Assembly: GCF_016127575.1 (NCBI RefSeq)
Contig: NZ_CP066019.1
Coordinates: 2,880,555 to 2,912,554, forward strand
Source of the DNA: Cupriavidus necator
GTDB lineage: Bacteria; Pseudomonadota; Gammaproteobacteria; Burkholderiales; Burkholderiaceae
Length of the DNA stretch: 32,000 nt
Direction: 5' to 3'
Positions 3,552 to 27,256 of the stretch are shown piece by piece; positions within the stretch are counted from its first letter, which is position 1, and each line of letters starts with the position of its first letter. Made by a program: the position numbers and the translations under genes. A model generated the notes under the pieces. The model was given only the letters and a program-made list of their open reading frames with translations. It was not told where the DNA came from and made no database searches.

Positions 3552-5591
3552 TCAGCTCGCCTTGCTTGAATTCGACAGTGTTGCGAGTTGCGGGTCGGTG
3601 CCGATCTCCGGGGGCGGCTGCTGGCGCGATGCAACCCCGCGCAGTGCATGCTGCAACGGCTGGCTCGGCTCCCGCTGCGAGGGCGCCGCCACCTTGCGGC
3701 CCGGCGACTCCAGTGAGCTGTACGGCGCGTACTCGACTACCAGGCTCTGAATGACGGTCTGGATCTCGAGTTCGTCACGGGTATCGCAGGCGGCAAAGAG
3801 GCGCTCAAGCATCTCGTGCAACTCTGCCTCCGCGATGAGCGGTTCGTTCGAGCACAAGATGCGCTCATGCTCGCTGGCCGTCACCTCACCACCGATGAGG
3901 AGCTCTTCAAACAGCTTCTCTCCCGGGCGCAGCCCCACGACCTTGATCTCGATGTCCCCGGCGGGGTTCTTGCGCGTCTTTTCCGTCAGGCCGGACATCT
4001 CGATCATCGTGCGGGCCAGGTCGATGATGCGGACGGGCTTGCCCATGTCCAGCACGAAGACTTCCCCACCTTTGGCCATCGCGCCGGCCTGGATCACCAA
4101 CTGGGCTGCTTCGGGGATCAGCATGAAGAAGCGGATGACGTCCGGATGCGTGATCGTGACGGGCCCGCCCTCACGGATCTGTTTGCGGAACAGTGGTACC
4201 ACGGACCCGGATGAGCCCAGTACATTGCCGAAGCGCACCATCGCGAACGTTGTCCGCGTGTTGGGGCGCGTGGCTGCGGCTTGGAAAACGAGTTCCGCAA
4301 TGCGCTTGCTGGCGCCCATCACGTTGGTGGGCCGTACCGCCTTGTCGGTGGAAACCAGCACGCAGGTCTGAACGCCGAAATGGTCTGCCAGATCGGCAAT
4401 GGTCAGGGAGCCCAGCACATTGTTGCGGATCCCTTCGGGCATGTTCTTTTCGACCAGCGGCACATGCTTGTAGGCGGCGGCGTGATAGATGGTGTCGACC
4501 TGCTGGCCGCGCAGTGCGGCTGACACGGCAGTGGCGTCGCACACAGAGCCGATCCGCGCCGTGATCTGCAGGTCAGGGTAGCGCTGGCGCAGTTCCTGTT
4601 CGATCGCGTAGAGGGCATATTCGGAGTGGTCGAAGAGAATTAGGCGCTGGGGTTCCTGCGAAGCGATCTGACGGCACAGCTCCCTGCCGATGGAGCCACC
4701 CGCACCGGTCACCATGACCGTCTTGCGTTGCGTGCATTTGGCGAACAGGTCTACCCGTGGCGGGACGATGTCACGGCCCAGCAAGTCTTCCACGCTGATA
4801 TCCCGAATCGATTGCACGGTGATCTTGCGATCCACAAGCTCGAGAAGAGAGGGCAACGTGCGCACGCTGACCGAATAGCGGTGCAGCTTGTCGACGATCT
4901 GGCGGCGGCGCTCGATTGGCAGGGACGGAACGGCCAGTACGACTTCATTGATGGCGTGCCGCTGGATCTCCTTGCGCACGTGGTTGCTGTGATGGACTGG
5001 AAGGTCGGCAACGACCTTGCCCTCCAGCGCGAAGTCATCGTCGAAGAAGCAGACGGCCTTGTGGCCCAGGCTGGCGCGCATGGCGATGGCGAGCTGGAAG
5101 CCGGCCTCGCCGGCGCCGAATATCCCCACGCGCAAGCTGGCGCGCTCGTTGCGGGCCAGCAGGCTCTGCCGCGTGCGCGTCAGCAAGGCGCGCGCCACGA
5201 AGCGCGAGATCACGACATAGGAAAAGGCGATGAACCAGTAGATCAGCAGGCCGGTGCGAGGCAGCCGGTCGAGGTGCATGAGGAACGACAGCGCATAGGT
5301 GAGTCCGACGATGCCGGCCAGGCTGGTGCCGGTGGTCCAAAGGACTTTCAGGTCGAAATACCGGACGACGGTCCGATACAGTCCGCTGAGCGAAAACACG
5401 GGAATCGTGCAGGCGGCAATGATCAGCGGCGGCGTGATGCCGTACTGTGCCAGCAACTCGAAGTTGCCGGCGCGCAGGAATAGTGCGAAAGCAAAGCACA
5501 GCGGCAGCGCAAGCAGGTCCGCCGCAATCATCAGCGCGACTTTGCGACGTCTTGGCAGGGCAATCAGCCAGCGCGAGAGCGGTTTGGTCAT
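3552..5591 (-). CDS. Membrane-anchored NDP-sugar 4,6-dehydratase/epimerase (CapD/WbpM/PglF family)
   Basis: 679-aa ORF with a GGAGG SD about 11 nt upstream of the ATG (cat 5589-5591). It has N-terminal hydrophobic helices followed by Rossmann domains. The glycine loop MVTGAGGSIGRELCRQI and the family-typical HAAAYKHVPLVE motif are present. Confidence 0.9.
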   Translation of the reverse strand: MTKPLSRWLIALPRRRKVALMIAADLLALPLCFAFALFLRAGNFELLAQYGITPPLIIAACTIPVFSLSGLYRTVVRYFDLKVLWTTGTSLAGIVGLTYALSFLMHLDRLPRTGLLIYWFIAFSYVVISRFVARALLTRTRQSLLARNERASLRVGIFGAGEAGFQLAIAMRASLGHKAVCFFDDDFALEGKVVADLPVHHSNHVRKEIQRHAINEVVLAVPSLPIERRRQIVDKLHRYSVSVRTLPSLLELVDRKITVQSIRDISVEDLLGRDIVPPRVDLFAKCTQRKTVMVTGAGGSIGRELCRQIASQEPQRLILFDHSEYALYAIEQELRQRYPDLQITARIGSVCDATAVSAALRGQQVDTIYHAAAYKHVPLVEKNMPEGIRNNVLGSLTIADLADHFGVQTCVLVSTDKAVRPTNVMGASKRIAELVFQAAATRPNTRTTFAMVRFGNVLGSSGSVVPLFRKQIREGGPVTITHPDVIRFFMLIPEAAQLVIQAGAMAKGGEVFVLDMGKPVRIIDLARTMIEMSGLTEKTRKNPAGDIEIKVVGLRPGEKLFEELLIGGEVTASEHERILCSNEPLIAEAELHEMLERLFAACDTRDELEIQTVIQSLVVEYAPYSSLESPGRKVAAPSQREPSQPLQHALRGVASRQQPPPEIGTDPQLATLSNSSKAS

Positions 5592-19713: not shown

Positions 19714-20499
19714 TCAGTCGCGCAGGCCCGGGCGGGTTTCGCTTTCCACCCAGACGTTGGCGCTGTCGACGCCGGCCGGCGACAACTCCATGCGGTATTC
19801 ATAGCGGTCCGGGCGGTACTGGCCGAGCAGCAACTGGACCGGGCGCCCGGCCGCGTCCTTGACCACGCGGCGCACCGCCAGCAGCGCGCCGCCTACCGGC
19901 ACGTCCAGCAGCGGCGCCACCACCACGTCGGCCAGGCGCGCGGACAGCACCTGGCTGGCACGGCCCAGCTTCACGCCGCCGGCCTCCAGCAGCCGCAGCA
20001 CCGGCCGCTCTTCCAGGGACTGGCGCGTGATCGGCCGGCCCAGGTCGGCGGGCAGGTAGACCGTGATATGCGACAGCGGCCGGTTGCGGTAGTGGCGCAC
20101 GCGCACGATCTTCACCACCGGATCGCCCGGCTCGATCTGCAGCGATTCGGCCACATCGGGCGTGGCATGGACTTCGTCGATCGAGATCACCTTCACCGAC
20201 GTCTTCTGGCCCATGTCGATGATGTTGTCGAGCAGGCTGGTGCCGCGTTCCTCGCCGGCCGCCGTCGCCGGGCGCACCGGATGCGGGTTGACGAAGGTGC
20301 CAAGCCCGCGGTGGCGGCGCACCAGGCCTTCTTGCACCAGGCGGTCGAACACGCGCCGCATGGTCACGCGCGAGGCGTGGAACTGCTTGGCCAGGTCGAT
20401 CTCGCCCGGCAAGGGGCCCTGGCCGAAGCGGCCTTCCACGATCTGCTGGCGCAATACCACGTAAATCTGGTGATACAGGGGAACGACGGCTTCACTCAT
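19714..20499 (-). CDS. GntR-family (HutC/UTRA-type) transcriptional regulator
   Basis: wHTH LPGEIDLAKQFHASRVTMRRVFDRLVQEGLVRRHRGLGTFV followed by a UTRA-like C-terminal domain. It is the first gene of the minus-strand module. Confidence 0.85.
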   Translation of the reverse strand: MSEAVVPLYHQIYVVLRQQIVEGRFGQGPLPGEIDLAKQFHASRVTMRRVFDRLVQEGLVRRHRGLGTFVNPHPVRPATAAGEERGTSLLDNIIDMGQKTSVKVISIDEVHATPDVAESLQIEPGDPVVKIVRVRHYRNRPLSHITVYLPADLGRPITRQSLEERPVLRLLEAGGVKLGRASQVLSARLADVVVAPLLDVPVGGALLAVRRVVKDAAGRPVQLLLGQYRPDRYEYRMELSPAGVDSANVWVESETRPGLRD

Positions 20500-21089
20500 G
20501 GTTTCCCTTGCGGAGAGATGACAAGTCTGTAATGCCTCTAATGTACTTTAAATCAGACATAGAGCCTAGCATGGTTAGCCGCAGTGGCGCTTGCGGGACA
20601 ACTGCGCCGGCGCGGTGTTGCAGCGATGCATCTCGTCTGTGCCGAGACCCTTGGCTGGCTGCGCCAGCGCGGGTGAAGTCGGTCTGGCGCCGCTGCATGC
20701 CTTGCTGGGATGGACAACGCCGGTGCGGTGGAGCGGGTTGTGCCGTGCGGCGAGAACAGGACATCGGGGCGCCGCCGCAGCAATGTGGAGATGCCCCACA
20801 CGGGCGGCGACGACGGCACCCTCGATGCCGTGTTTCAGTCCCGATACGTAAGGTCGCGCCTCGGGCAAATTCTGGCTGCCGGCATAAGACCCTGAAAAAT
20901 AAGGCGTTTTCCGACTACCCCGGAACCCCCCCAGGTGGGCCGGGAGTGGCCGTGTCACAGCGGTGTGACATGTCGTCTGCCGTGCACAGCGGCGAGGGCG
21001 GCAAGCGTCGCGCAAAGCCGCGGAAAGTCCCCGCCAGAGTGCCGGGCGGGCCTTGTAATACAAGGAGTTGGCGCCGCAGGTGGCGCAGC

Positions 21090-21104
21090 TGGCACCGATT
21101 ATGC
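21090..21104 (+). promoter_or_regulatory. Candidate sigma-54 (-24/-12) promoter
   Basis: TGGCAC-cgatt-ATGC compared with the consensus TGGCAC-N5-TTGC. The GG/GC spacing is correct and there is one mismatch in the -12 box. It sits about 120 bp upstream of ATG 21224. No enhancer-binding protein gene is visible in the window. Confidence 0.3.
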
Positions 21105-21223
21105 GCAAGGGGAGTCTGGTTTGGCTGGGTGCCGGACCTGAACCTCCAGCCGTCGTTCCTCGCAAGAGCGCCGGCCGGAGGCTGAGCCGCTGTGACACTG
21201 TGCAATTCTCCTGGGAGCTTCGT

Positions 21224-22738
21224 ATGAAAAAGACCTTACTGGCGTCGGCTATCGCCATGGCATTTGCGGGACAGGCCTGGGCAAATCCGACCAATAACAA
21301 CGACGTGGTAAGAGGTGGCGGCGACAACACGCAAACCGCCACAGCGACCTCGACGCAGAGTGGCAGCGGCGCGGCGGCAAACGAATATTCGACCGCAGTC
21401 CAGGCCAATGACAGCAGCACCAACACCAGAACCACCACGGTTGGCGTCAACAAGACCAAGACCACGACCAACTCGAACAACAGGAGCAGGATCGACTTTG
21501 ACCATGGCGTAGGCAACGCGGGCTCCAACGGTGGCAGCGCAACCTCCAGCGTAAGCAACGCCTTCAACACCAGCAAGGCACTGGCGATCAGCAAGCTGAA
21601 TGGCACGGTTTCCAACAACAGCATTGGCCCGATCGGCAATTACGCCACCAACTGGGGTAACGCGAATGGTGCAGCCGGTGGCCGGGGCGGCAATGGCTTT
21701 GGCGGTACCGGCGAAGGCGGGCGCGGCGGCAACGGCGGCAACGGCGGTAACGGCGGCAGCGGCGGCTCCGGTGGCAGCGCTACCAACGGTAGCGCCACCA
21801 ATGGCGACGCCACCAACGGCAGCGCCAACGCTGGTAATGGCGGTGCCGGCGGCAAGGCGATTGGCTGGGCCGGCAGTGGCGGTGACGGCAAGGCATATGG
21901 CGGCAGCGCACTCTCCGCAGCGGGCAGCAAGGGCGGCAGCGGCGGCGATGCTTATGGCAAGGGCGGCGGCGCTCTGAGCGCATCGCTCGGCGCCGGCGGC
22001 CGCGGCGGCAGTGCCGGCGCGATCGGCGGTGGTGGCCTGGGTGCCAGCGGCGCCCTGGGCGGCTTGGCAGGTTCGGCCGGCGGCTCAGGTGGTAGCAGCG
22101 GCAATGCCAACGGTGCGGGTGGCGACACTACCACTGGCGGCGCAGGCGGCGCAGGCGGCGCAGCGGCCGGTACCAACACGGCTGGCGCAGGCACCGGTTC
22201 GGGCGGCGCAGGTACCGCGAGTGGCGGTGCGGGCGGTGCCGGAACGGCAGCTGCAGGCGCGACCGGCGGAGCCGGCAGCGGCACCGGCGGTGCCGGTGGC
22301 GCGGGCGGCGCGGCGACCTCGACCGCAACGGCGGGCGCGGCAAGCGGCACCGGCGGCGCGGGCGGCACGCAAGCCAGCGTTGGCGGCGCGGGCGGTACTG
22401 GCGGTTCGGCCACGAACGGCAGCGCAACGAGTTCGGCCTCCAATGGCAGCTCCACGGCTGGCAACGGTGCGGTGGGTGCTACCGGCGGCGCGGGCGGCGC
22501 GGGCGGCACTGGCAATGGCGGCACTGGCGGCACCGGCAACGGCGCAGTCGGCGGCGCTGGCGGTAATGGCGGTTACAACATTGTTGACGCGGGCACCTTC
22601 AATATGTCCAACACCATGACCAGCGTTGGTCAAACGGCGGCGGGCATCATGATGGCCAACCAGAACAGCGGCGCTGCCTCGCTCGTGCAGCAAAGCGTGA
22701 ACGTTCAGGCCAACCTGCAGGTCGGCGGCAACCGGTAA
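21224..22738 (+). CDS. Secreted 504-aa glycine-rich (GGAGG/GGN, PGRS-like) protein; putative major cargo or fibre subunit of the C39/barrel operon
   Basis: GGGAG SD and signal peptide MKKTLLASAIAMAFAGQAWA. The order of regions is DVVRGG, a T/N/S-rich segment, about 306 aa of Gly/Ala/Ser/Thr/Asn low complexity (nt 21656-22573), and a C-terminal Q/N module ...TAAGIMMANQNSGAASLVQQSVNVQANL. The mature part has no Cys. Confidence 0.8.
   Translation: MKKTLLASAIAMAFAGQAWANPTNNNDVVRGGGDNTQTATATSTQSGSGAAANEYSTAVQANDSSTNTRTTTVGVNKTKTTTNSNNRSRIDFDHGVGNAGSNGGSATSSVSNAFNTSKALAISKLNGTVSNNSIGPIGNYATNWGNANGAAGGRGGNGFGGTGEGGRGGNGGNGGNGGSGGSGGSATNGSATNGDATNGSANAGNGGAGGKAIGWAGSGGDGKAYGGSALSAAGSKGGSGGDAYGKGGGALSASLGAGGRGGSAGAIGGGGLGASGALGGLAGSAGGSGGSSGNANGAGGDTTTGGAGGAGGAAAGTNTAGAGTGSGGAGTASGGAGGAGTAAAGATGGAGSGTGGAGGAGGAATSTATAGAASGTGGAGGTQASVGGAGGTGGSATNGSATSSASNGSSTAGNGAVGATGGAGGAGGTGNGGTGGTGNGAVGGAGGNGGYNIVDAGTFNMSNTMTSVGQTAAGIMMANQNSGAASLVQQSVNVQANLQVGGNR
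21725..21838 (+). repeat. In-frame tandem repeats inside the glycine-rich gene: 9-bp units (GGC GGC AAC/AGC) x6, then 15-bp units (GCC ACC AAC GGC AGC) x4
   Basis: Read directly. Positions 21725-21778 encode GGN GGN GGN GGS GGS GGS. Positions 21779-21838 encode ATNGS ATNGD ATNGS ANAGN. Confidence 0.85.
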
Positions 22739-22751
22739 GGCGTGCAGCCAC

Positions 22752-22784
22752 GGTCTGGCCCGGGACTTGTGCCCGGGCCAGACC
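22752..22784 (+). terminator. Perfect 13-bp GC-rich hairpin 14 nt after the stop of the glycine-rich gene (attenuator or terminator candidate)
   Basis: GGTCTGGCCCGGG-acttgtg-CCCGGGCCAGACC. No U-tract follows. Confidence 0.45.
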
Positions 22785-22805
22785 GGCAGCTCGCACTCAT
22801 GCCGG

Positions 22806-22848
22806 CAGGACCGGCGCCCGCATCCTGTGTGCGGGCGCGCGGGTCCTG
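22806..22848 (+). terminator. Second compound hairpin (7 + 9 bp) in the same intergenic gap
   Basis: CAGGACC g GCGCCCGCA-tcctgtg-TGCGGGCGC gcg GGTCCTG. The loop shares YTGTG with the first hairpin. No U-tract follows. Confidence 0.35.
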
Positions 22849-22923
22849 TCATGCCCCAAGCAAGCCTGATTGCCTTGCAGCCGTCCGGATGGGGGCGGCC
22901 GGCAGGCAAGGGGAGACGACATC

Positions 22924-23358
22924 ATGCAATCGGTCCGCTTCGCCGTCGGCGCATTCGCGACGGTCTTACTCGCCTGGCCAGTGCTGCAGGCGCACGCTGA
23001 GCCGCCAGGGCTGGACGCCGCCATGGCAGCGGCGCGCGCTGCTTCTGGCGCTGCCCCGGACACGGCTGCAATCACCGCACAGCCGACGGCCGCAACTTCC
23101 TTGTTCGGAGGGGTGGCGAAAGCCGTACCCGTGTCTAAACTGGATGACATCCGTGGCGGCGCCGAGGTCACGGTCAACGATATGCGCCTGCACGGTACCG
23201 TGGCCGACAACGCCGCGGTCAATATTCTGTCCGGCACCAACAACATCGCGGACGGGGCCTTCTCGAATGCGGCAGGGATTCCCACCGCGATCCAGAACTC
23301 GGGCTCCAACGTACTGATCCAGAACGCCACTATCGTCAACGTCCAGTTCAAGCAATGA
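22924..23358 (+). CDS. Secreted 144-aa protein with internal double-glycine motif and C-terminal Q/N module (putative minor subunit or nucleator)
   Basis: GGGGAG SD and signal peptide MQSVRFAVGAFATVLLAWPVLQAHA. An Ala/Pro-rich pro-region ends in VSKLDDIRGG. The C-terminal 65 aa end in ...NAAGIPTAIQNSGSNVLIQNATIVNVQFKQ. The stop overlaps the next ATG (ATGA at 23355-23358). Confidence 0.75.
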   Translation: MQSVRFAVGAFATVLLAWPVLQAHAEPPGLDAAMAAARAASGAAPDTAAITAQPTAATSLFGGVAKAVPVSKLDDIRGGAEVTVNDMRLHGTVADNAAVNILSGTNNIADGAFSNAAGIPTAIQNSGSNVLIQNATIVNVQFKQ

Positions 23359-24053
23359 AGCCGCTGCGAAACCTGTTGGCGTCTGTACCGTTCTTGCTGG
23401 CCGCGGGGGGCGTTCCATGTGCCCAGGCTGCCGACACCCTGATATACGGGCCGGTCGGCGAGTCCTACAACGTCCGGGTCACGAGCGTGCGCGAGGCTCG
23501 CTTCAAGTCCACGATCCGGCAGCAGTTCGACTTCAGCTGCGGCTCGGCCGCGGTGGCCACGCTGCTGAGCTACCAGTACGGCCATCCGATGAATGAGGCC
23601 ACGGTCTTCCAGAACATGTACCTCAACGGCGACCAGCAGAAGATCCGCGCCGAGGGGTTCTCGCTGCTCGACATGAAGCGCTTCCTGGCCGCGCTCGGCT
23701 ATGAGGCGGACGGCTACGAGCTGCCACTGTCCAAGCTGGAAGAGACGCAGGTGCCGGCCATCGTGCTGATCGTGGAGAACGGTTACCACCATTTCGTGGT
23801 GGTCAAGGGCGTGAAGGGCGACCGCGTGCTGATCGGCGATCCCGCACGCGGCACGCGCGCGATGTCACGCGAGCATTTCGAGCAGATCTGGGACAGCCAG
23901 CTGCTGTTCGTGATCCATAACCGCACCGAACGGGCGCGGTTCAACCTTGCAGCCGACTGGCGCGTTGCGCCGAGCGGTCCTTACTGGATGGGAGTCAACC
24001 GGGATAGCTTGTTCTTCACCGTCATGCCCAAGCATGGCGCGGGCGATTTTTGA
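23355..24053 (+). CDS. Periplasmic stand-alone C39-family cysteine peptidase (FapD-like)
   Basis: Signal peptide MKPLRNLLASVPFLLAAGGVPCAQA. Gln56 and Cys62 sit in RQQFDFSCGSAAVATLL (Q six residues before C). His146 sits in GYHHFVVVKG and Asp162 in LIGDP (His-to-Asp spacing of 16). This is the canonical C39 catalytic arrangement. Confidence 0.85.
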   Translation: MKPLRNLLASVPFLLAAGGVPCAQAADTLIYGPVGESYNVRVTSVREARFKSTIRQQFDFSCGSAAVATLLSYQYGHPMNEATVFQNMYLNGDQQKIRAEGFSLLDMKRFLAALGYEADGYELPLSKLEETQVPAIVLIVENGYHHFVVVKGVKGDRVLIGDPARGTRAMSREHFEQIWDSQLLFVIHNRTERARFNLAADWRVAPSGPYWMGVNRDSLFFTVMPKHGAGDF

Positions 24054-24063
24054 GGAACGCATC

Positions 24064-24909
24064 ATGTTGCAGACTTCCTTCCCGACCCCAGCAGCCCCTC
24101 GCAGCGCCGGTCATGCGGCCGCGGCGATGCTGCTCGGGGCCGGTTTGGCCTGTGCCGGCACGGCGCAGGCCACCATGCTGCCACAGCCCGACGCCCTCGA
24201 CGCGTCGGCGCTTCCATTGCAGGGGGCCATGCCCTCGAGCGACGGGCAGGACCAAAACCCTCTGGCTGCCGCACGCGGCAGCATGGCCGGCTGGAAACCG
24301 GTAGCACACGAAAAACTCGACGACATGCGGGGCGGCTTCGAAGTGCCGGGCCTGCAGGTTTCGTTCGGTATCGAACGCGCGGTGTACATCAACGGGGCCC
24401 TGGTGGTTGCCACCAGCATTAACATCCCCGATGTCAGCCGTATCACCGCCGACCAGGCTGCGCGGCTTGCCTCGACGCTGGGCCCGGCCATCGTTGCCAG
24501 CACCAATGCGGCGGTCGCCAACGCGCTGGCGGCGGCGGGCGCGGCCGGTTCGGATGGGAGCGCCACCTCGGCGGCCAATGGCGCCTCGGCCAGCAGCACC
24601 GGCACGTCCGGGGCCGGTTCGGGCGCCAGCGGTGCGGCGGGCTTGCCGGCGGCGGTGGTGAATACGGCCACCGGTCAGGTCGTGAGCAATGGGCTGTTGA
24701 ACGTGATCCAGAACGGCCCGGGCAATGCGGCATCGGTGGGATCGCTGGCGGGGACGCCAACGACCGTGATCCAGAACACCTTGAACAACCAGAGCATCCG
24801 GAGCCTGATGACAATCGACGCAAGCGTAAATACGCTGCAGGCATTCCGGTCGCAGTTGGCCAACACCACGCTGAACAACGCGCTGATGCGGGCCGCAAGC
24901 ATGAGGTAG
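24064..24909 (+). CDS. Secreted 281-aa protein with internal double-glycine motif, beta-rich core, G/A/S linker and degenerate Q/N module (FapE-position protein)
   Basis: GAGGAA SD and signal peptide ...AAAAMLLGAGLACAGTAQA. The pro-region ends in HEKLDDMRGG. It continues with FEVPGLQVSFGIERAVYINGALVVATSINIP, a Gly/Ala/Ser stretch, and then LLNVIQNGPGN...SLAGTPTTVIQNTLNNQ. Confidence 0.75.
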   Translation: MLQTSFPTPAAPRSAGHAAAAMLLGAGLACAGTAQATMLPQPDALDASALPLQGAMPSSDGQDQNPLAAARGSMAGWKPVAHEKLDDMRGGFEVPGLQVSFGIERAVYINGALVVATSINIPDVSRITADQAARLASTLGPAIVASTNAAVANALAAAGAAGSDGSATSAANGASASSTGTSGAGSGASGAAGLPAAVVNTATGQVVSNGLLNVIQNGPGNAASVGSLAGTPTTVIQNTLNNQSIRSLMTIDASVNTLQAFRSQLANTTLNNALMRAASMR

Positions 24910-24985
24910 TCGTAGCGAGGCATCGGGCAGTACAGGTCGCAGGCTCCTGCAAGAACAGCCTGCCGTCCCGGGGGAGGAAGACGTC

Positions 24986-26425
24986 ATGAAGAAGCGGTCG
25001 ATGCAGGGCATTCGCAATGCGGGATGCTCGACGTTACTGTTGCTCGGCGGCCTGGCGCAGGCCCAGACGCCGCCGGATGCGGGACCACCCGCAGCCGGAC
25101 TGGAAGCACTGCAGAAGGAGCTTGCCGAACAGGCCACCCAGCTCGACGCCATGAAGCGGGCGCTGGCCGAACAGGAGGCGCTGATCCGCGAACTGCGTAA
25201 CGTGATCGGCACCGAGGTGCTGGCCAACAAGCGCGGCGGCCAGCGCGCGGGGCCAGGCGTGTCGCCGTCCGACAATGCCACCAACGCCGCTACCGCGGCG
25301 GCCGCTGCCAGCGCCACCCAGTCAGCGCCCAACGCGGTCAACAACCCGCAGCAGATCATTCTCCAGCCACCGCAGGACATGGCCCAGGGTCCGCAGGCGG
25401 GCGAGTCCGCCGACCGGCAGACCGTGGCCCTGGAAGAACCCGTGGGCCGCCCGCCGGAGGAAGACCGCCGTCCGCCTGAGATCGCGCCGATCATCGACCA
25501 GCCCGGCGTGCTGACCGCCCAGGGCAAGCTGGTGATCGAGCCCGGCTTCCAGTACGGCTATTCGTCCAATAACCGCGTCGCGCTGGTCGGCTACACGGTC
25601 ATCCCGGCCATCCTGATCGGCCTGGTCGATGTGCGCGAAGTCAAGACCTCGACCTACATCCCGTCGGTAGCGTTTCGCTACGGCCTGACCAAGCGGCTGG
25701 AAATCGAAGCCAAGGTGCCTTACGTGCACTCATCGGGCCAGACAGTCAGCCGCGAGGTCTTCACCGGCACGGCCGTCGACCGCGTGTTCAATGCGAGCGG
25801 CAGCGGTATCGGCGACGTCGAGGCGACGGTGCGCTACCAGCTCAACTACGGCAACGAGAAGATTCCGTACTTCGTCGGCTGGCTGCGCTACAAGTCCAAT
25901 ACCGGCACCGACCCGTTCGAGGTCGTGACCGACTGCGTGACGCGCTGCGTGGGCAATGCCACCGGCACCGGCCTGCCGCTCGGGTTGCCCACCGGCACCG
26001 GCTTCCAGGCGATCCAGCCCGGCATCACCTGGCTGCTGCCGACTGACCCGGCGGTGTTCTTCGGCACCTTCAGCTACCTGCACAACTTTGCGCGCGACAA
26101 CGTGAGCCGCACCGTGCTGAACGGCGAGAAGGAGAATCTCGGCAAGATCGCCCCCGGCGACATCTTCGAGTTCAGCTTCGGCATGGGCCTGTCGCTCAAT
26201 GAGAAGGCGTCGTTCAGCATCGGCTATGACCAGGCCATCATCTGGCCGACCAAGCAGAACGGCCAGACCGTGCCGGGCTCGGTGCGCGTGACCCAGGGCA
26301 CCTTGCTGGTGGGCTATTCGTACCGCTTCAACAACCGCTACACGGTGAACCTTTCAGTGGGTGCGGGGCTGACGCGCGACACCCCCGACCTGCAGGTGAA
26401 CCTGCGCCTGCCAATCACTTTCTGA
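24986..26425 (+). CDS. Outer-membrane beta-barrel with N-terminal coiled coil and disordered linker (FapF-like; MetA/phenol-degradation-type barrel fold family)
   Basis: GGAGGAAG SD and a signal peptide ending LAQA. A clean 5-heptad a/d pattern runs L39 L42 L46 Q49 L53 M56 L60 Q63 I67 L70 I74 (nt 25100-25207). It is followed by about 90 aa of A/P/Q/N-rich linker, then alternating beta-strand sequence ending ...VNLRLPITF with a terminal Phe. Confidence 0.8.
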   Translation: MKKRSMQGIRNAGCSTLLLLGGLAQAQTPPDAGPPAAGLEALQKELAEQATQLDAMKRALAEQEALIRELRNVIGTEVLANKRGGQRAGPGVSPSDNATNAATAAAAASATQSAPNAVNNPQQIILQPPQDMAQGPQAGESADRQTVALEEPVGRPPEEDRRPPEIAPIIDQPGVLTAQGKLVIEPGFQYGYSSNNRVALVGYTVIPAILIGLVDVREVKTSTYIPSVAFRYGLTKRLEIEAKVPYVHSSGQTVSREVFTGTAVDRVFNASGSGIGDVEATVRYQLNYGNEKIPYFVGWLRYKSNTGTDPFEVVTDCVTRCVGNATGTGLPLGLPTGTGFQAIQPGITWLLPTDPAVFFGTFSYLHNFARDNVSRTVLNGEKENLGKIAPGDIFEFSFGMGLSLNEKASFSIGYDQAIIWPTKQNGQTVPGSVRVTQGTLLVGYSYRFNNRYTVNLSVGAGLTRDTPDLQVNLRLPITF

Positions 26426-26460
26426 CGCGCCTTGCTGCGAATTTCCGCCTGACGTGACGC

Positions 26461-26483
26461 GTGCCCCGCATGTGCGGGGGCAC
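26461..26483 (+). terminator. GC-rich hairpin 36 nt downstream of the barrel gene stop
   Basis: GTGCCCCGC-atgt-GCGGGGGCAC, a 9-bp stem with one bulged G. There is no clear U-tract. Confidence 0.4.
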
Positions 26484-26639
26484 GTGCGCATCACATCCGC
26501 GGCGAGGGTGCGCAGGCACGGAAACGCGCCTTGCGCTGGCCCCTTGAACGGCGTACAAAGAAATAACCCCGCGCCGCCAGCGGTACTTTCTGACCAGGCT
26601 CAAACTCACCGGCGGTGCGGCCTGAAAAAGGAGAGAGAC

Positions 26640-27152
26640 ATGCGCAAACGCATCTTCTGGTTGTTGCCCGACCTGGCGAGTGCCCGTCGCACCATGGACG
26701 ACCTGCTGCTTGCCCGGCTCGAGAACCGCCACATCCACTTCGTGGCGCGCGACGGCTCCGACATGACCGGCCTGCATGAAGCCAACCTGTTCCAGACCTC
26801 CGACATCGTGCATGCCGCCGAGATGGGCTTGATGGTCGGCGGCGGCGTGGGCGTCGTGGCCGGCGTCGTGGTGGCGATGTTCCCGATCGTCAGCGACACC
26901 CCGCAGTGGGGCCTCGTCGGCGTGCTGGCGGTGCTGGGCGCGGTGTTTGGCGCGTGGGCCTCGAGCATGATCGGCAGTTCGGCACCCAACAGCCGGCTGC
27001 GTGCATTCGAGAAGGACATCGAGGCCGGCAAGATCCTGCTGATGGTCGACGTGCCGCGCAGCCGTGTCGAGGAAATCGAAACCCTGCTCGCGAACGCGCA
27101 TCCGGAAGCCAGCTTTGCGGGGTTGGACCCGGCTGTGCCGGCTTTCCCCTGA
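26640..27152 (+). CDS. DUF1269-like small membrane protein (glycine-zipper TM pair)
   Basis: AAAAAGGAGAGAG SD before ATG 26640. Two Gly-rich TM segments are present (MGLMVGGGVGVVAGVVVAMF and GLVGVLAVLGAVFGAWASSMIG), flanked by soluble N- and C-terminal parts. Confidence 0.65.
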   Translation: MRKRIFWLLPDLASARRTMDDLLLARLENRHIHFVARDGSDMTGLHEANLFQTSDIVHAAEMGLMVGGGVGVVAGVVVAMFPIVSDTPQWGLVGVLAVLGAVFGAWASSMIGSSAPNSRLRAFEKDIEAGKILLMVDVPRSRVEEIETLLANAHPEASFAGLDPAVPAFP

Positions 27153-27256
27153 GCCGTCGGCGTATCGTCGCTTATTGTCGTTCAACGCGGTCGCATGTCT
27201 TTCCGCGCGCCCTTGCGGCGCGCCCTGACGCGCATCCTTTAGCGCGCCCCGGCTCG

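Follow-up and report, generated by a model that had tools for sequence, protein, structure and literature searches.

A glycine-rich exported protein of Cupriavidus necator as the probable cargo of an operon distantly related to the Fap system

In the Fap functional-amyloid system of Pseudomonas (fapABCDEF), the Sec machinery exports FapB, FapC and FapE, which leave through FapF, a protein in which an N-terminal coiled coil is followed by a linker (PMC5557850). The catalytic Cys of FapD is required, and the target of this peptidase is unknown (PMC5557850); the published speculation is that it cuts FapE or FapF. The linkers of FapC total 70-160 residues (PMC9268375). A 2018 review reported colocalised fapD and fapF homologues in five further phyla, and their cargo was not described (PMC6173800). 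Here we analyse a locus with such a pair in a stretch of 32,000 nucleotides of Cupriavidus necator (contig NZ_CP066019.1, positions 2,880,555 to 2,912,554), hereafter called the window. The locus comprises five co-oriented genes, in the order P1, P2, P3 (C39 peptidase), P4 and P5 (FapF-like; Table 1). An original prediction, made from the DNA letters alone, had pointed out a glycine-rich, PGRS-like domain in the product of P1 and had placed it in a Gram-negative secreted protein. With a probability of roughly 60%, we propose that P1 would be the Sec-exported cargo, most likely the major subunit of an extracellular fibre or matrix, of an operon that is a distant sister of Pseudomonas Fap.

The identification of the machinery comes from P3 and P5. 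P3 matches Pfam Peptidase_C39 (E = 9e-25) and the NCBIfam models of FapD (E = 6.7e-43) and FilB (E = 1e-39). It also aligns with the double-glycine protease of PDB entry 6MPZ (E = 1e-8) and with PCAT1. Its CG (FSCGSAAVA) and HF (YHHFVVVKG) segments fall on LECGAASLA and NHFVVLKG of 6MPZ, and we take the residues of these motifs as the putative catalytic Cys and His. P5 matches NCBIfam FapF (E = 9e-42) and, at a distance, FilC (5.8e-10), and its residues 160-479 align with the FapF crystal structure 5O67 (E = 7e-28), LPTG motif included. By these profile matches, P3 is a homologue of FapD and P5 of FapF. The likeness to Fap (FapF structures 5O65 and 5O67) concerns the layout as well. In both, a periplasmic C39 peptidase accompanies a FapF-type barrel with a PTG motif, in which an N-terminal coiled coil precedes a disordered linker, and the substrates are Sec-exported. 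In both, the pore comes after the peptidase and an intervening protein in the FapE position, which combines a disordered linker with a Q/N-rich C-terminus. Finally, a large and a small subunit have Q/N-rich motifs in common, P1 and P2 standing as FapC and FapB, and the main subunit contains a non-core region of variable length.

P1 starts with a Sec signal peptide (MKKTLLASAIAMAFAGQAWA, residues 1-20) and a polar region rich in Thr, Asn and Ser (residues 21-110), followed by a conserved N motif, the Gly-rich insert and a Q/N-rich C motif. With this signal peptide and an operon that also codes for homologues of the FapD peptidase and of the FapF outer-membrane pore, it is very probably secreted, as originally predicted. 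The gene is real and under purifying selection: its dN/dS (the ratio of nonsynonymous to synonymous substitution rates) of 0.33-0.39 indicates that P1 is translated and constrained. In the family alignment, F118, L129, G131, V133, G142 and N143 of the N motif are nearly invariant (consensus NxFNxSxAxAxSxLxGxVSxNxxxxIGN). The C motif (consensus AGTFxMSNxMxxVGQxAAGIMxAxQNSGxxSLxQQxxxVQAN) is 74-89% identical in the relatives from metagenomes, Luteimonas and Rhodoferax. Full-length relatives share the signal peptide, the polar N-terminal region and both motifs.

Comparison of the P1 and P2 profiles with hhalign gave a probability of 75-77% (E = 2e-5) for a collinear alignment in which the Gly insert falls between the common motifs. 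RLxGTVaDN of P2 corresponds to the N motif of P1, and GaFxNAxGxPTVIQNSGxNVLIQN to its C motif. On this evidence P2 is a predicted small paralogue of the P1 core devoid of the Gly insert, and its collinearity with that core argues that a loop of a P2-like unit has been expanded into the Gly-rich domain. The 441 homologues of P2 are all annotated as hypothetical. P4 has a 'KPV..KLDDxRGGxEV' region in common with P2 (hhalign probability 93.5%) and contains a variable low-complexity Ala/Gly/Ser linker, its orthologues ranging from 271 to 456 residues. The Q/N-rich motifs VIQNGPGN and TVIQNTLNNQSI at the C-terminus of P4 also resemble the C motif of P1 and P2. Neither P2 nor P4 matched a Pfam or NCBIfam family at E <= 0.1.

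The operon is conserved. A scan with P5 revealed 57 loci across Cupriavidus (67-97% identity), in which the gene order is kept; the P1 N-terminal region is present in 46 of them, P2 and P3 in 52 and P4 in 56. The full-length P1 orthologues, also found in 46 of the 57 loci and representing 46 Cupriavidus species, have an open reading frame (ORF) of 389-546 residues. The same order, P1-P2-C39-P4-FapF-like, is found in a Nitrospira contig, in Luteimonas composti and in a metagenome contig (L061), and another contig (L071) has the five genes together with the FapF-like gene on the opposite strand.

P1 itself matched no family of Pfam or NCBIfam at E <= 0.1. A phmmer search with the full-length protein (word-filtered, 8000 candidates scored) returned 11 proteins, all with the N and C motifs of P1. 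As full-length searches were swamped by Gly-rich words, the search was repeated with the Gly region excised. A natural Gly-less homologue (P0012) compared with 1.84 billion representatives yielded 95 proteins or clusters, many of them fragments. Named relatives are all annotated as hypothetical, a profile search of the PDB with the P1 family matched only artificial Gly linkers, and our literature searches combining Cupriavidus with FapF, FilB/FilC and FapD cleavage gave nothing describing the family. P1 would define the cargo family of a non-Fap fapD-fapF-type pair, and a rare one at 95 clusters. We also observed faulty public gene calls for relatives of P1 (P0021, P0023, P0026, P0001, P0009 and P0010), which are truncated and start inside the Gly region, are frame-fused downstream or, in one case, are extended 5' of the true start. 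Owing to such calls, the family is under-represented and poorly annotated in protein databases.

P2, P4 and P5 share an L-x-x-x-R-G-G motif, which is not present in P1. It was found in 52 of 52 P2, 31 of 31 P4 and 56 of 58 P5 sequences. P2 and P4 from Nitrospira and Luteimonas contain it too, and in these two proteins it is invariant across three phyla. Its form in P2 and P4 is L-x-x-(I/M/V/Q)-R-G-G, and positions -4, -7 and -12 are hydrophobic. In P5, it stands between the N-terminal coiled coil and the disordered low-complexity linker. This motif looks like a candidate double-glycine site for P3: a conserved GG with hydrophobic residues at -4 and -7, the hallmark of C39 substrates, is found in the P2, P4 and P5 sequences, and cleavage there is predicted. 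The prediction runs parallel to the speculation that FapE or FapF is cut by FapD. The double-glycine leaders of the PCAT1, ComA and LahT systems are similar in that the GG motif of P2 and P4 is encoded beside a C39 enzyme. In contrast with those systems, P3 is a free-standing periplasmic protein not fused to an ABC exporter, and the GG motif, instead of belonging to a cytoplasmic leader, is found 70-90 residues into proteins that Sec exports. The Fap literature that we examined does not report this motif. Beside a FapD-like peptidase, it represents a testable candidate for the open question of the C39 target in Fap.

Several observations weigh against P1 as the cargo of a Fap-related operon. 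The bit scores of P3 and P5 are far below the NCBIfam equivalog cut-offs (146 versus 330 for FapD, 143 versus 700 for FapF), which makes the machinery a remote sister of Fap rather than an orthologue. P1, P2 and P4 match no FapB, FapC or FapE model at E <= 0.1 in Pfam or NCBIfam, libraries for which the presence of such models is unconfirmed. The kinship of P1 and P2 rests on about 36 well-aligned columns, and one contig (L070) has four of the five genes with no FapF-like gene within 7 kb. CsgA and FapC are usually predicted as beta-solenoids, whereas the AlphaFold2 (AF2) models of P1 (24-sequence alignment) and P2 (74 sequences) are devoid of one; with such shallow alignments, this is weak evidence. 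The mean pLDDT (predicted local distance difference test) value was 43.5 for P1, without secondary structure, and 55.5 for P2. P1, P2 and P4 can be regarded as putative amyloid subunits by analogy only. Further differences from Fap are that P1 and P2 have one N and one C motif each instead of three imperfect repeats of 34-37 residues (GVNxAA type), and that the operon has no FapA candidate and, in the FapE position, a protein without a family-model match. In addition, the variable region of P1 is 44% Gly and reaches 334 residues, well beyond the linkers of FapC, and the Cupriavidus operon has a sigma-54-type promoter.

The Acinetobacter Fil system, a putative pilus system, likewise pairs a C39 peptidase (FilB, as P3) with a FapF-like barrel (FilC, as P5). 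The scores are well below the cut-offs (136.6 versus 475 bits for FilB, 39 versus 630 bits for FilC), P5 is much closer to FapF, and P1, P2 and P4 matched no NCBIfam model; we thus rejected a Fil identity.

The locus is best read as a variant of a Fap-type system with a new cargo family, and its working would be closest to that of Fap. By analogy, we infer export through P5, cleavage at the RGG sites, fibre formation and the conformation of the insert, as follows. The operon would be transcribed from the sigma-54-type promoter, and the strong hairpin 3' of P1 would probably raise the output of P1 relative to the downstream genes. P1, P2 and P4 would cross the inner membrane through Sec, P3 would cut P2, P4 and perhaps P5 at the conserved L-x-x-x-R-G-G, and the unfolded substrates would exit via the FapF-like barrel P5, presumably a trimer. 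Outside the cell, the Q/N-rich N and C motifs of P1, common to P2, may form the assembling core. The insert, a loop of about 300 residues between these motifs in Cupriavidus, would stand out from it and act as a flexible, extended spacer or coat with a tendency to polyproline-II (PPII) or polyglycine-II (PGII) conformation, with its GG pairs constrained and its X positions free to vary. Such an insert would follow the logic of the variable FapC linkers, taken further and with another composition.

Table 1. Positions in the window of the five genes and of the motifs and signals discussed in the text
Feature	Position	Strand	Basis or remark
P1, 504-aa Gly-rich secreted protein, first gene of the operon	21224..22738	+	ORF, translation, orthologues, dN/dS
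P1, conserved N motif (SNAFNTSKALAISKLNGTVSNNSIGPIGN)	21554..21640	+	family alignment
P1, Gly-rich insert	21656..22573	+	306 aa, 44% Gly, short (GGX)n runs
P1, conserved Q/N-rich C motif (AGTFNMSNTMTSVGQTAAGIMMANQNSGAASLVQQSVNVQANL...)	22589..22735	+	relatives, P2 profile match
P2, 144-aa exported protein with signal peptide	22924..23358	+	441 homologues; profile match to the P1 family
P3, predicted periplasmic C39 (double-glycine) cysteine peptidase, FapD-related	23355..24053	+	Pfam, NCBIfam, PDB profile
P4, 281-aa exported protein in the FapE position	24064..24909	+	signal peptide, orthologues, hhalign to P2
P5, 479-aa FapF-like outer-membrane barrel with signal peptide	24986..26425	+	NCBIfam, PDB 5O67
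LDDIRGG in P2, candidate P3 site	23140-23160	+	L-x-x-x-R-G-G motif
LDDMRGG in P4, candidate P3 site	24316-24336	+	L-x-x-x-R-G-G motif
LANKRGG in P5, at the coiled coil/linker junction, candidate P3 site	25220-25240	+	L-x-x-x-R-G-G motif
Sigma-54-type promoter motif TGGCAC-N5-ATGC	21090..21105	+	about 134 nt 5' of the P1 start codon
GC-rich hairpin directly 3' of the P1 stop codon, no U tract	22752..22784	+	-44.6 kcal/mol, z = -5.8 versus shuffles

The composition of the insert is as originally described. Its 306 residues include 136 Gly (44%), 64 Ala, 31 Ser, 27 Thr and 20 Asn, i.e. 91% in total. It contains no Cys, Pro, His or Met, 4 Asp, and 15 large hydrophobic or aromatic residues, with 1 Phe, 1 Trp and 2 Tyr as the aromatics. 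The count of 41 Gly in the 90-residue stretch from GGAGGAGGAAAG to GGAGGTGG was exact, GGAGG, announced at least eight times, occurs 11 times, and GGNGGNGGNGGSGGSGGS is present as claimed, with ATNG found four times. There are 17 GGA, 9 GGS, 6 GGT and 5 GGN triplets. The Gly residues of the insert have a period of three, with a lag-3 autocorrelation of 0.31, about 5 standard deviations above shuffled sequences; the mean is 0.24 over 47 sequences, namely that of the window and its 46 Cupriavidus orthologues. Fourteen (GGX)n runs of 2-7 triplets account for 113 of the 306 residues (37%).

At the DNA level, Tandem Repeats Finder detected the GGC-rich in-frame repeats at the predicted places: 21723-21779 (period 9/18), 21773-21827 (period 15, 3.7 copies) and 22136-22167 (period 9, 3.7 copies, 95% match). 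The short in-frame repeats of the region have periods of 9, 15, 18 and 24. All arrays are short (<=5 copies) except two weak ones at 60-63% match, located at 21723-21766 (period 3, 14.7 copies) and 22511-22572 (period 9, 7.2 copies). Profile self-comparison revealed no significant long internal repeat in the Gly region (best off-diagonal E = 1e-3, probability 19%). The Asp periodicity of RTX proteins is absent, as had been noted: P1 has one isolated GGxGxD and no array of tandem GGxGxDxUx nonapeptides. With only 4 Asp in 306 residues and no Pfam match besides, an RTX identity was rejected. The literature that we searched contains no description of such a domain in proteobacterial fibre systems, in keeping with the original prediction.

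Gly-rich structural proteins with GGX runs include spider silk, the snow-flea antifreeze protein and the PGII sandwich of phage gp38. P1 resembles them in its GGX runs and in the occurrence of Gly/Ala/Ser-rich blocks in extracellular material. In contrast, it has no known homology with them and is devoid of poly-Ala blocks and disulfides. In an alternative reading, the insert would fold as a PGII helical sandwich, i.e. a flat and rigid surface module convergent with the PGRS model, the antifreeze protein and gp38. This alternative concerns the structure of the insert only and is compatible with the secretion context; we consider it rather unlikely. In its favour are the period of three and the (GGX)n runs, which are in the size range of PGII helices, given as 3-4 triplets (PMC9436101). 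The GG positions are conserved and the X positions variable, as Gly positions of the region are 82% conserved compared with 52% for the others. There are also few indels among the closest relatives despite the low complexity, and dN/dS is 0.39. However, AF2 gave no PGII sandwich (24 sequences, low confidence) and no regular structure, with pLDDT values of 33-46 over most of the region, 54-63 over its first ~35 residues and 52-61 over the last ~20. Only the 37% of residues mentioned above belong to runs of at least two GGX triplets, the few aromatic residues do not make up the regular hydrophobic or aromatic edge reported for PGRS domains, and the conservation of Gly columns may in part represent an alignment artefact in a Gly-rich sequence. 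Moreover, members of the family do well with inserts of 22-90 residues, and one lineage has deleted the insert. The published AF2 models of PE_PGRS proteins are confident (PMC9436101), and since P1 lacks the aromatic edge in addition, an extended flexible region appears more likely to us than a rigid sandwich.

The original prediction also proposed that the repeats are prone to slippage or recombination, which would give strain-to-strain length polymorphism of a surface-exposed protein. In its strong form, a contingency-type repeat generating frequent length variants of a surface antigen, this appears improbable. Variation in length is evident over long times: the insert measures 244-334 residues in the 46 Cupriavidus loci and 22-258 residues in relatives outside them. 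The metagenome contig L061 codes for a 212-residue P1 (positions 4110-4748) that lacks the whole insert, owing to a clean, derived in-frame 918-bp deletion at a 7-bp microhomology of GGCGG type. The flanking genes are as in the window and the operon is otherwise intact. The contig is nested in the C. pauculus clade. C. pauculus UM1, with a P1 of 518 residues, has a P5 96% identical to that of the contig. The microhomology is too short for the deletion to be a k-mer assembly artefact. Thus, the insert is variable in length and deletable. The short in-frame DNA repeats, a 10-residue indel that distinguishes two loci from two others (L005 and L025 versus L009 and L010), the contigs of six assemblies that end inside the region and the rapid evolution of P1 also fit the contingency idea.

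When the 30 species pairs closest in their FapF-like proteins (96-99% identity) are compared, P1 lengths differ by 0-3 residues in 21 pairs and by 10 in five, with a maximum of 15. P1 identity is as low as 70-85% among such pairs, and divergence is mainly by substitution. Over the 47 aligned sequences, mean pairwise identity in the Gly region is 0.63. Gap events per 100 residues amount to 2.8 there, roughly a third of the value for the N-terminal polar region (9.2); the two motifs have 0.1-0.8, with 0.1 for the N motif. In the seven closest sequences, the Gly region is nearly gapless, and blocks like GGSALSAAGSKGGSGGDAYGKGGGALSASLGAGGRGGSAGAIGG are kept position by position. Three genomes with the same protein (P0035) are at least 99.98% identical and have identical P1 genes, and are thus uninformative on length change. 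Over the 13,470-bp locus compared, two C. metallidurans records do not differ (100% identity), and the contig of the closest relative begins inside the Gly region. The arrays, as described above, are of few copies and lack a long repeat unit. Frequent slippage polymorphism is thus weakly supported, while deletion and expansion over longer times clearly occur. The natural range of insert lengths, deletion variant included, represents a ready series for testing the role of Gly-rich regions in extracellular fibres.

P1 is the fastest-evolving gene of the operon. Between the window and the closest record (L001), dN/dS is 0.36 for P1 and 0.09 for P5, and dS declines along the operon, from 0.65 for P1 to about 0.4 for P2 and P3, 0.29 for P4 and 0.20 for P5. 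Pairs of loci with P5 proteins 99% identical can have P1 proteins only 81% identical (operon-wide comparisons: the window versus L001 and L002, and L008 versus L012). As the dS of P1 exceeds that of P5, the P1 alleles seem older than the machinery, which suggests that old alleles are exchanged by recombination.

A bolder combination of these elements would be a new type of extracellular fibre. Its Q/N-rich, amyloid-like core, made of the P1 motifs and nucleated by P2, would display a PGII-folded Gly module of about 300 residues, and its assembly would be licensed by C39 cleavage of P2, P4 and P5 at L-x-x-x-R-G-G. We regard this combination as improbable. If true, it would provide, on the Gram-negative side, a convergent equivalent of the PGRS sandwich or of silk-like GGX material, and would identify the substrate type of FapD-like enzymes. 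By itself, the Gly-rich composition is a curiosity; it is the rare family, its modular insert with natural length variants and the candidate C39 site that offer a handle on open questions of Fap-type secretion.

We also considered whether the P1 ORF is a spurious frame in GC-rich DNA, with the true gene in another frame or on the other strand. Overlapping Pro/Ala-rich and Arg/Ala-rich ORFs of 195-274 residues in other frames, and the truncated or frame-fused database calls listed above (other than P0010), could be cited for it. This is very improbable, as the P1 frame codes for a signal peptide and for N and C motifs that are conserved, is open in 46 other Cupriavidus genomes, has a dN/dS below 0.4 and is called as a 512-residue gene in complete genomes, and as its Gly codons are 119 GGC and 34 GGT versus 4 GGA/GGG.

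The PGRS likeness that gave rise to the analysis holds for composition and not for relationship. P1 shares with PE_PGRS proteins GGA/GGN/GGX triplets with a period of three, variable length and a surface or secreted nature. In P1, however, the triplet runs are shorter and interspersed with Ala/Ser/Thr-rich segments, and there is neither a regular aromatic edge nor, in the low-confidence AF2 model, a PGII sandwich. A GRPLI motif and a linker have been described before the PGRS domain (PMC9436101). That P1 is homologous to the mycobacterial PE_PGRS proteins, or acquired horizontally from them, has next to no probability and is effectively refuted. The common triplets are the only point in its favour. 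Against it, the PE domain (PF00934), any other Pfam match, the GRPLI motif and ESX-5 (type VII) export are absent, and P1 carries a signal peptide for Sec and belongs to an outer-membrane secretion operon of Gram-negative type. The phmmer search among the 8000 candidates with the largest number of shared words gave only the 11 members of its own family, with no detectable homology to PE_PGRS, and codon usage and GC content agree with the host.

As to regulation, of 47 Cupriavidus loci, 45 have the sigma-54-type motif at -120 to -134; L061 and CH34 have it too, and Luteimonas has the variant TGGCAT-N5-TTGC. The motif occurs only twice in the window, both strands counted, and no sigma-70-like site was found in 20450-26700. 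Genes for sigma-54 activators flank the Luteimonas and Nitrospira cassettes; none was seen adjoining the Cupriavidus operon. An Rfam scan of the 5' region revealed no riboswitch, its sole match being a chance CRISPR-DR (E = 0.33). An equally strong hairpin of differing sequence follows the P1 stop codon in 47 of 47 loci. This hairpin may act as an attenuator within the operon or stabilise the mRNA. A high ratio of subunit to downstream products set by a hairpin is known for the major subunit genes of pilus operons, and by analogy the same could hold here for P1 and the products of the downstream genes. Cupriavidus necator and C. metallidurans are biotechnology workhorses; hence, a sigma-54-controlled matrix operon matters for their aggregation and biofilm behaviour.

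The P1 operon is a locus that breaks short-read assemblies. Contigs end inside P1 in L021, L024, L026, L043, L056 and L065, and inside P4 in L013, L030, L035 and L044. The location of these draft-assembly breaks in the Gly-rich part of P1 or in the linker of P4 suggests problems of short-read coverage or repeats. A conserved predicted membrane protein of 170 residues (MRKRIFWLLPDLASARRTMDDLLLAR...) is encoded 3' of the operon in the window (26613-27157), in L061 and in L065-L068; no Pfam family was recorded for it in our contig look-ups. Finally, the closest record in the species-representative scan (L001, CP158804.1), with a P5 97% identical to that of the window, bears the name Ralstonia pickettii strain RAL3. 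As the operon and flanks of this record agree with Cupriavidus necator-like genomes, it is probably mislabelled or its classification is outdated.

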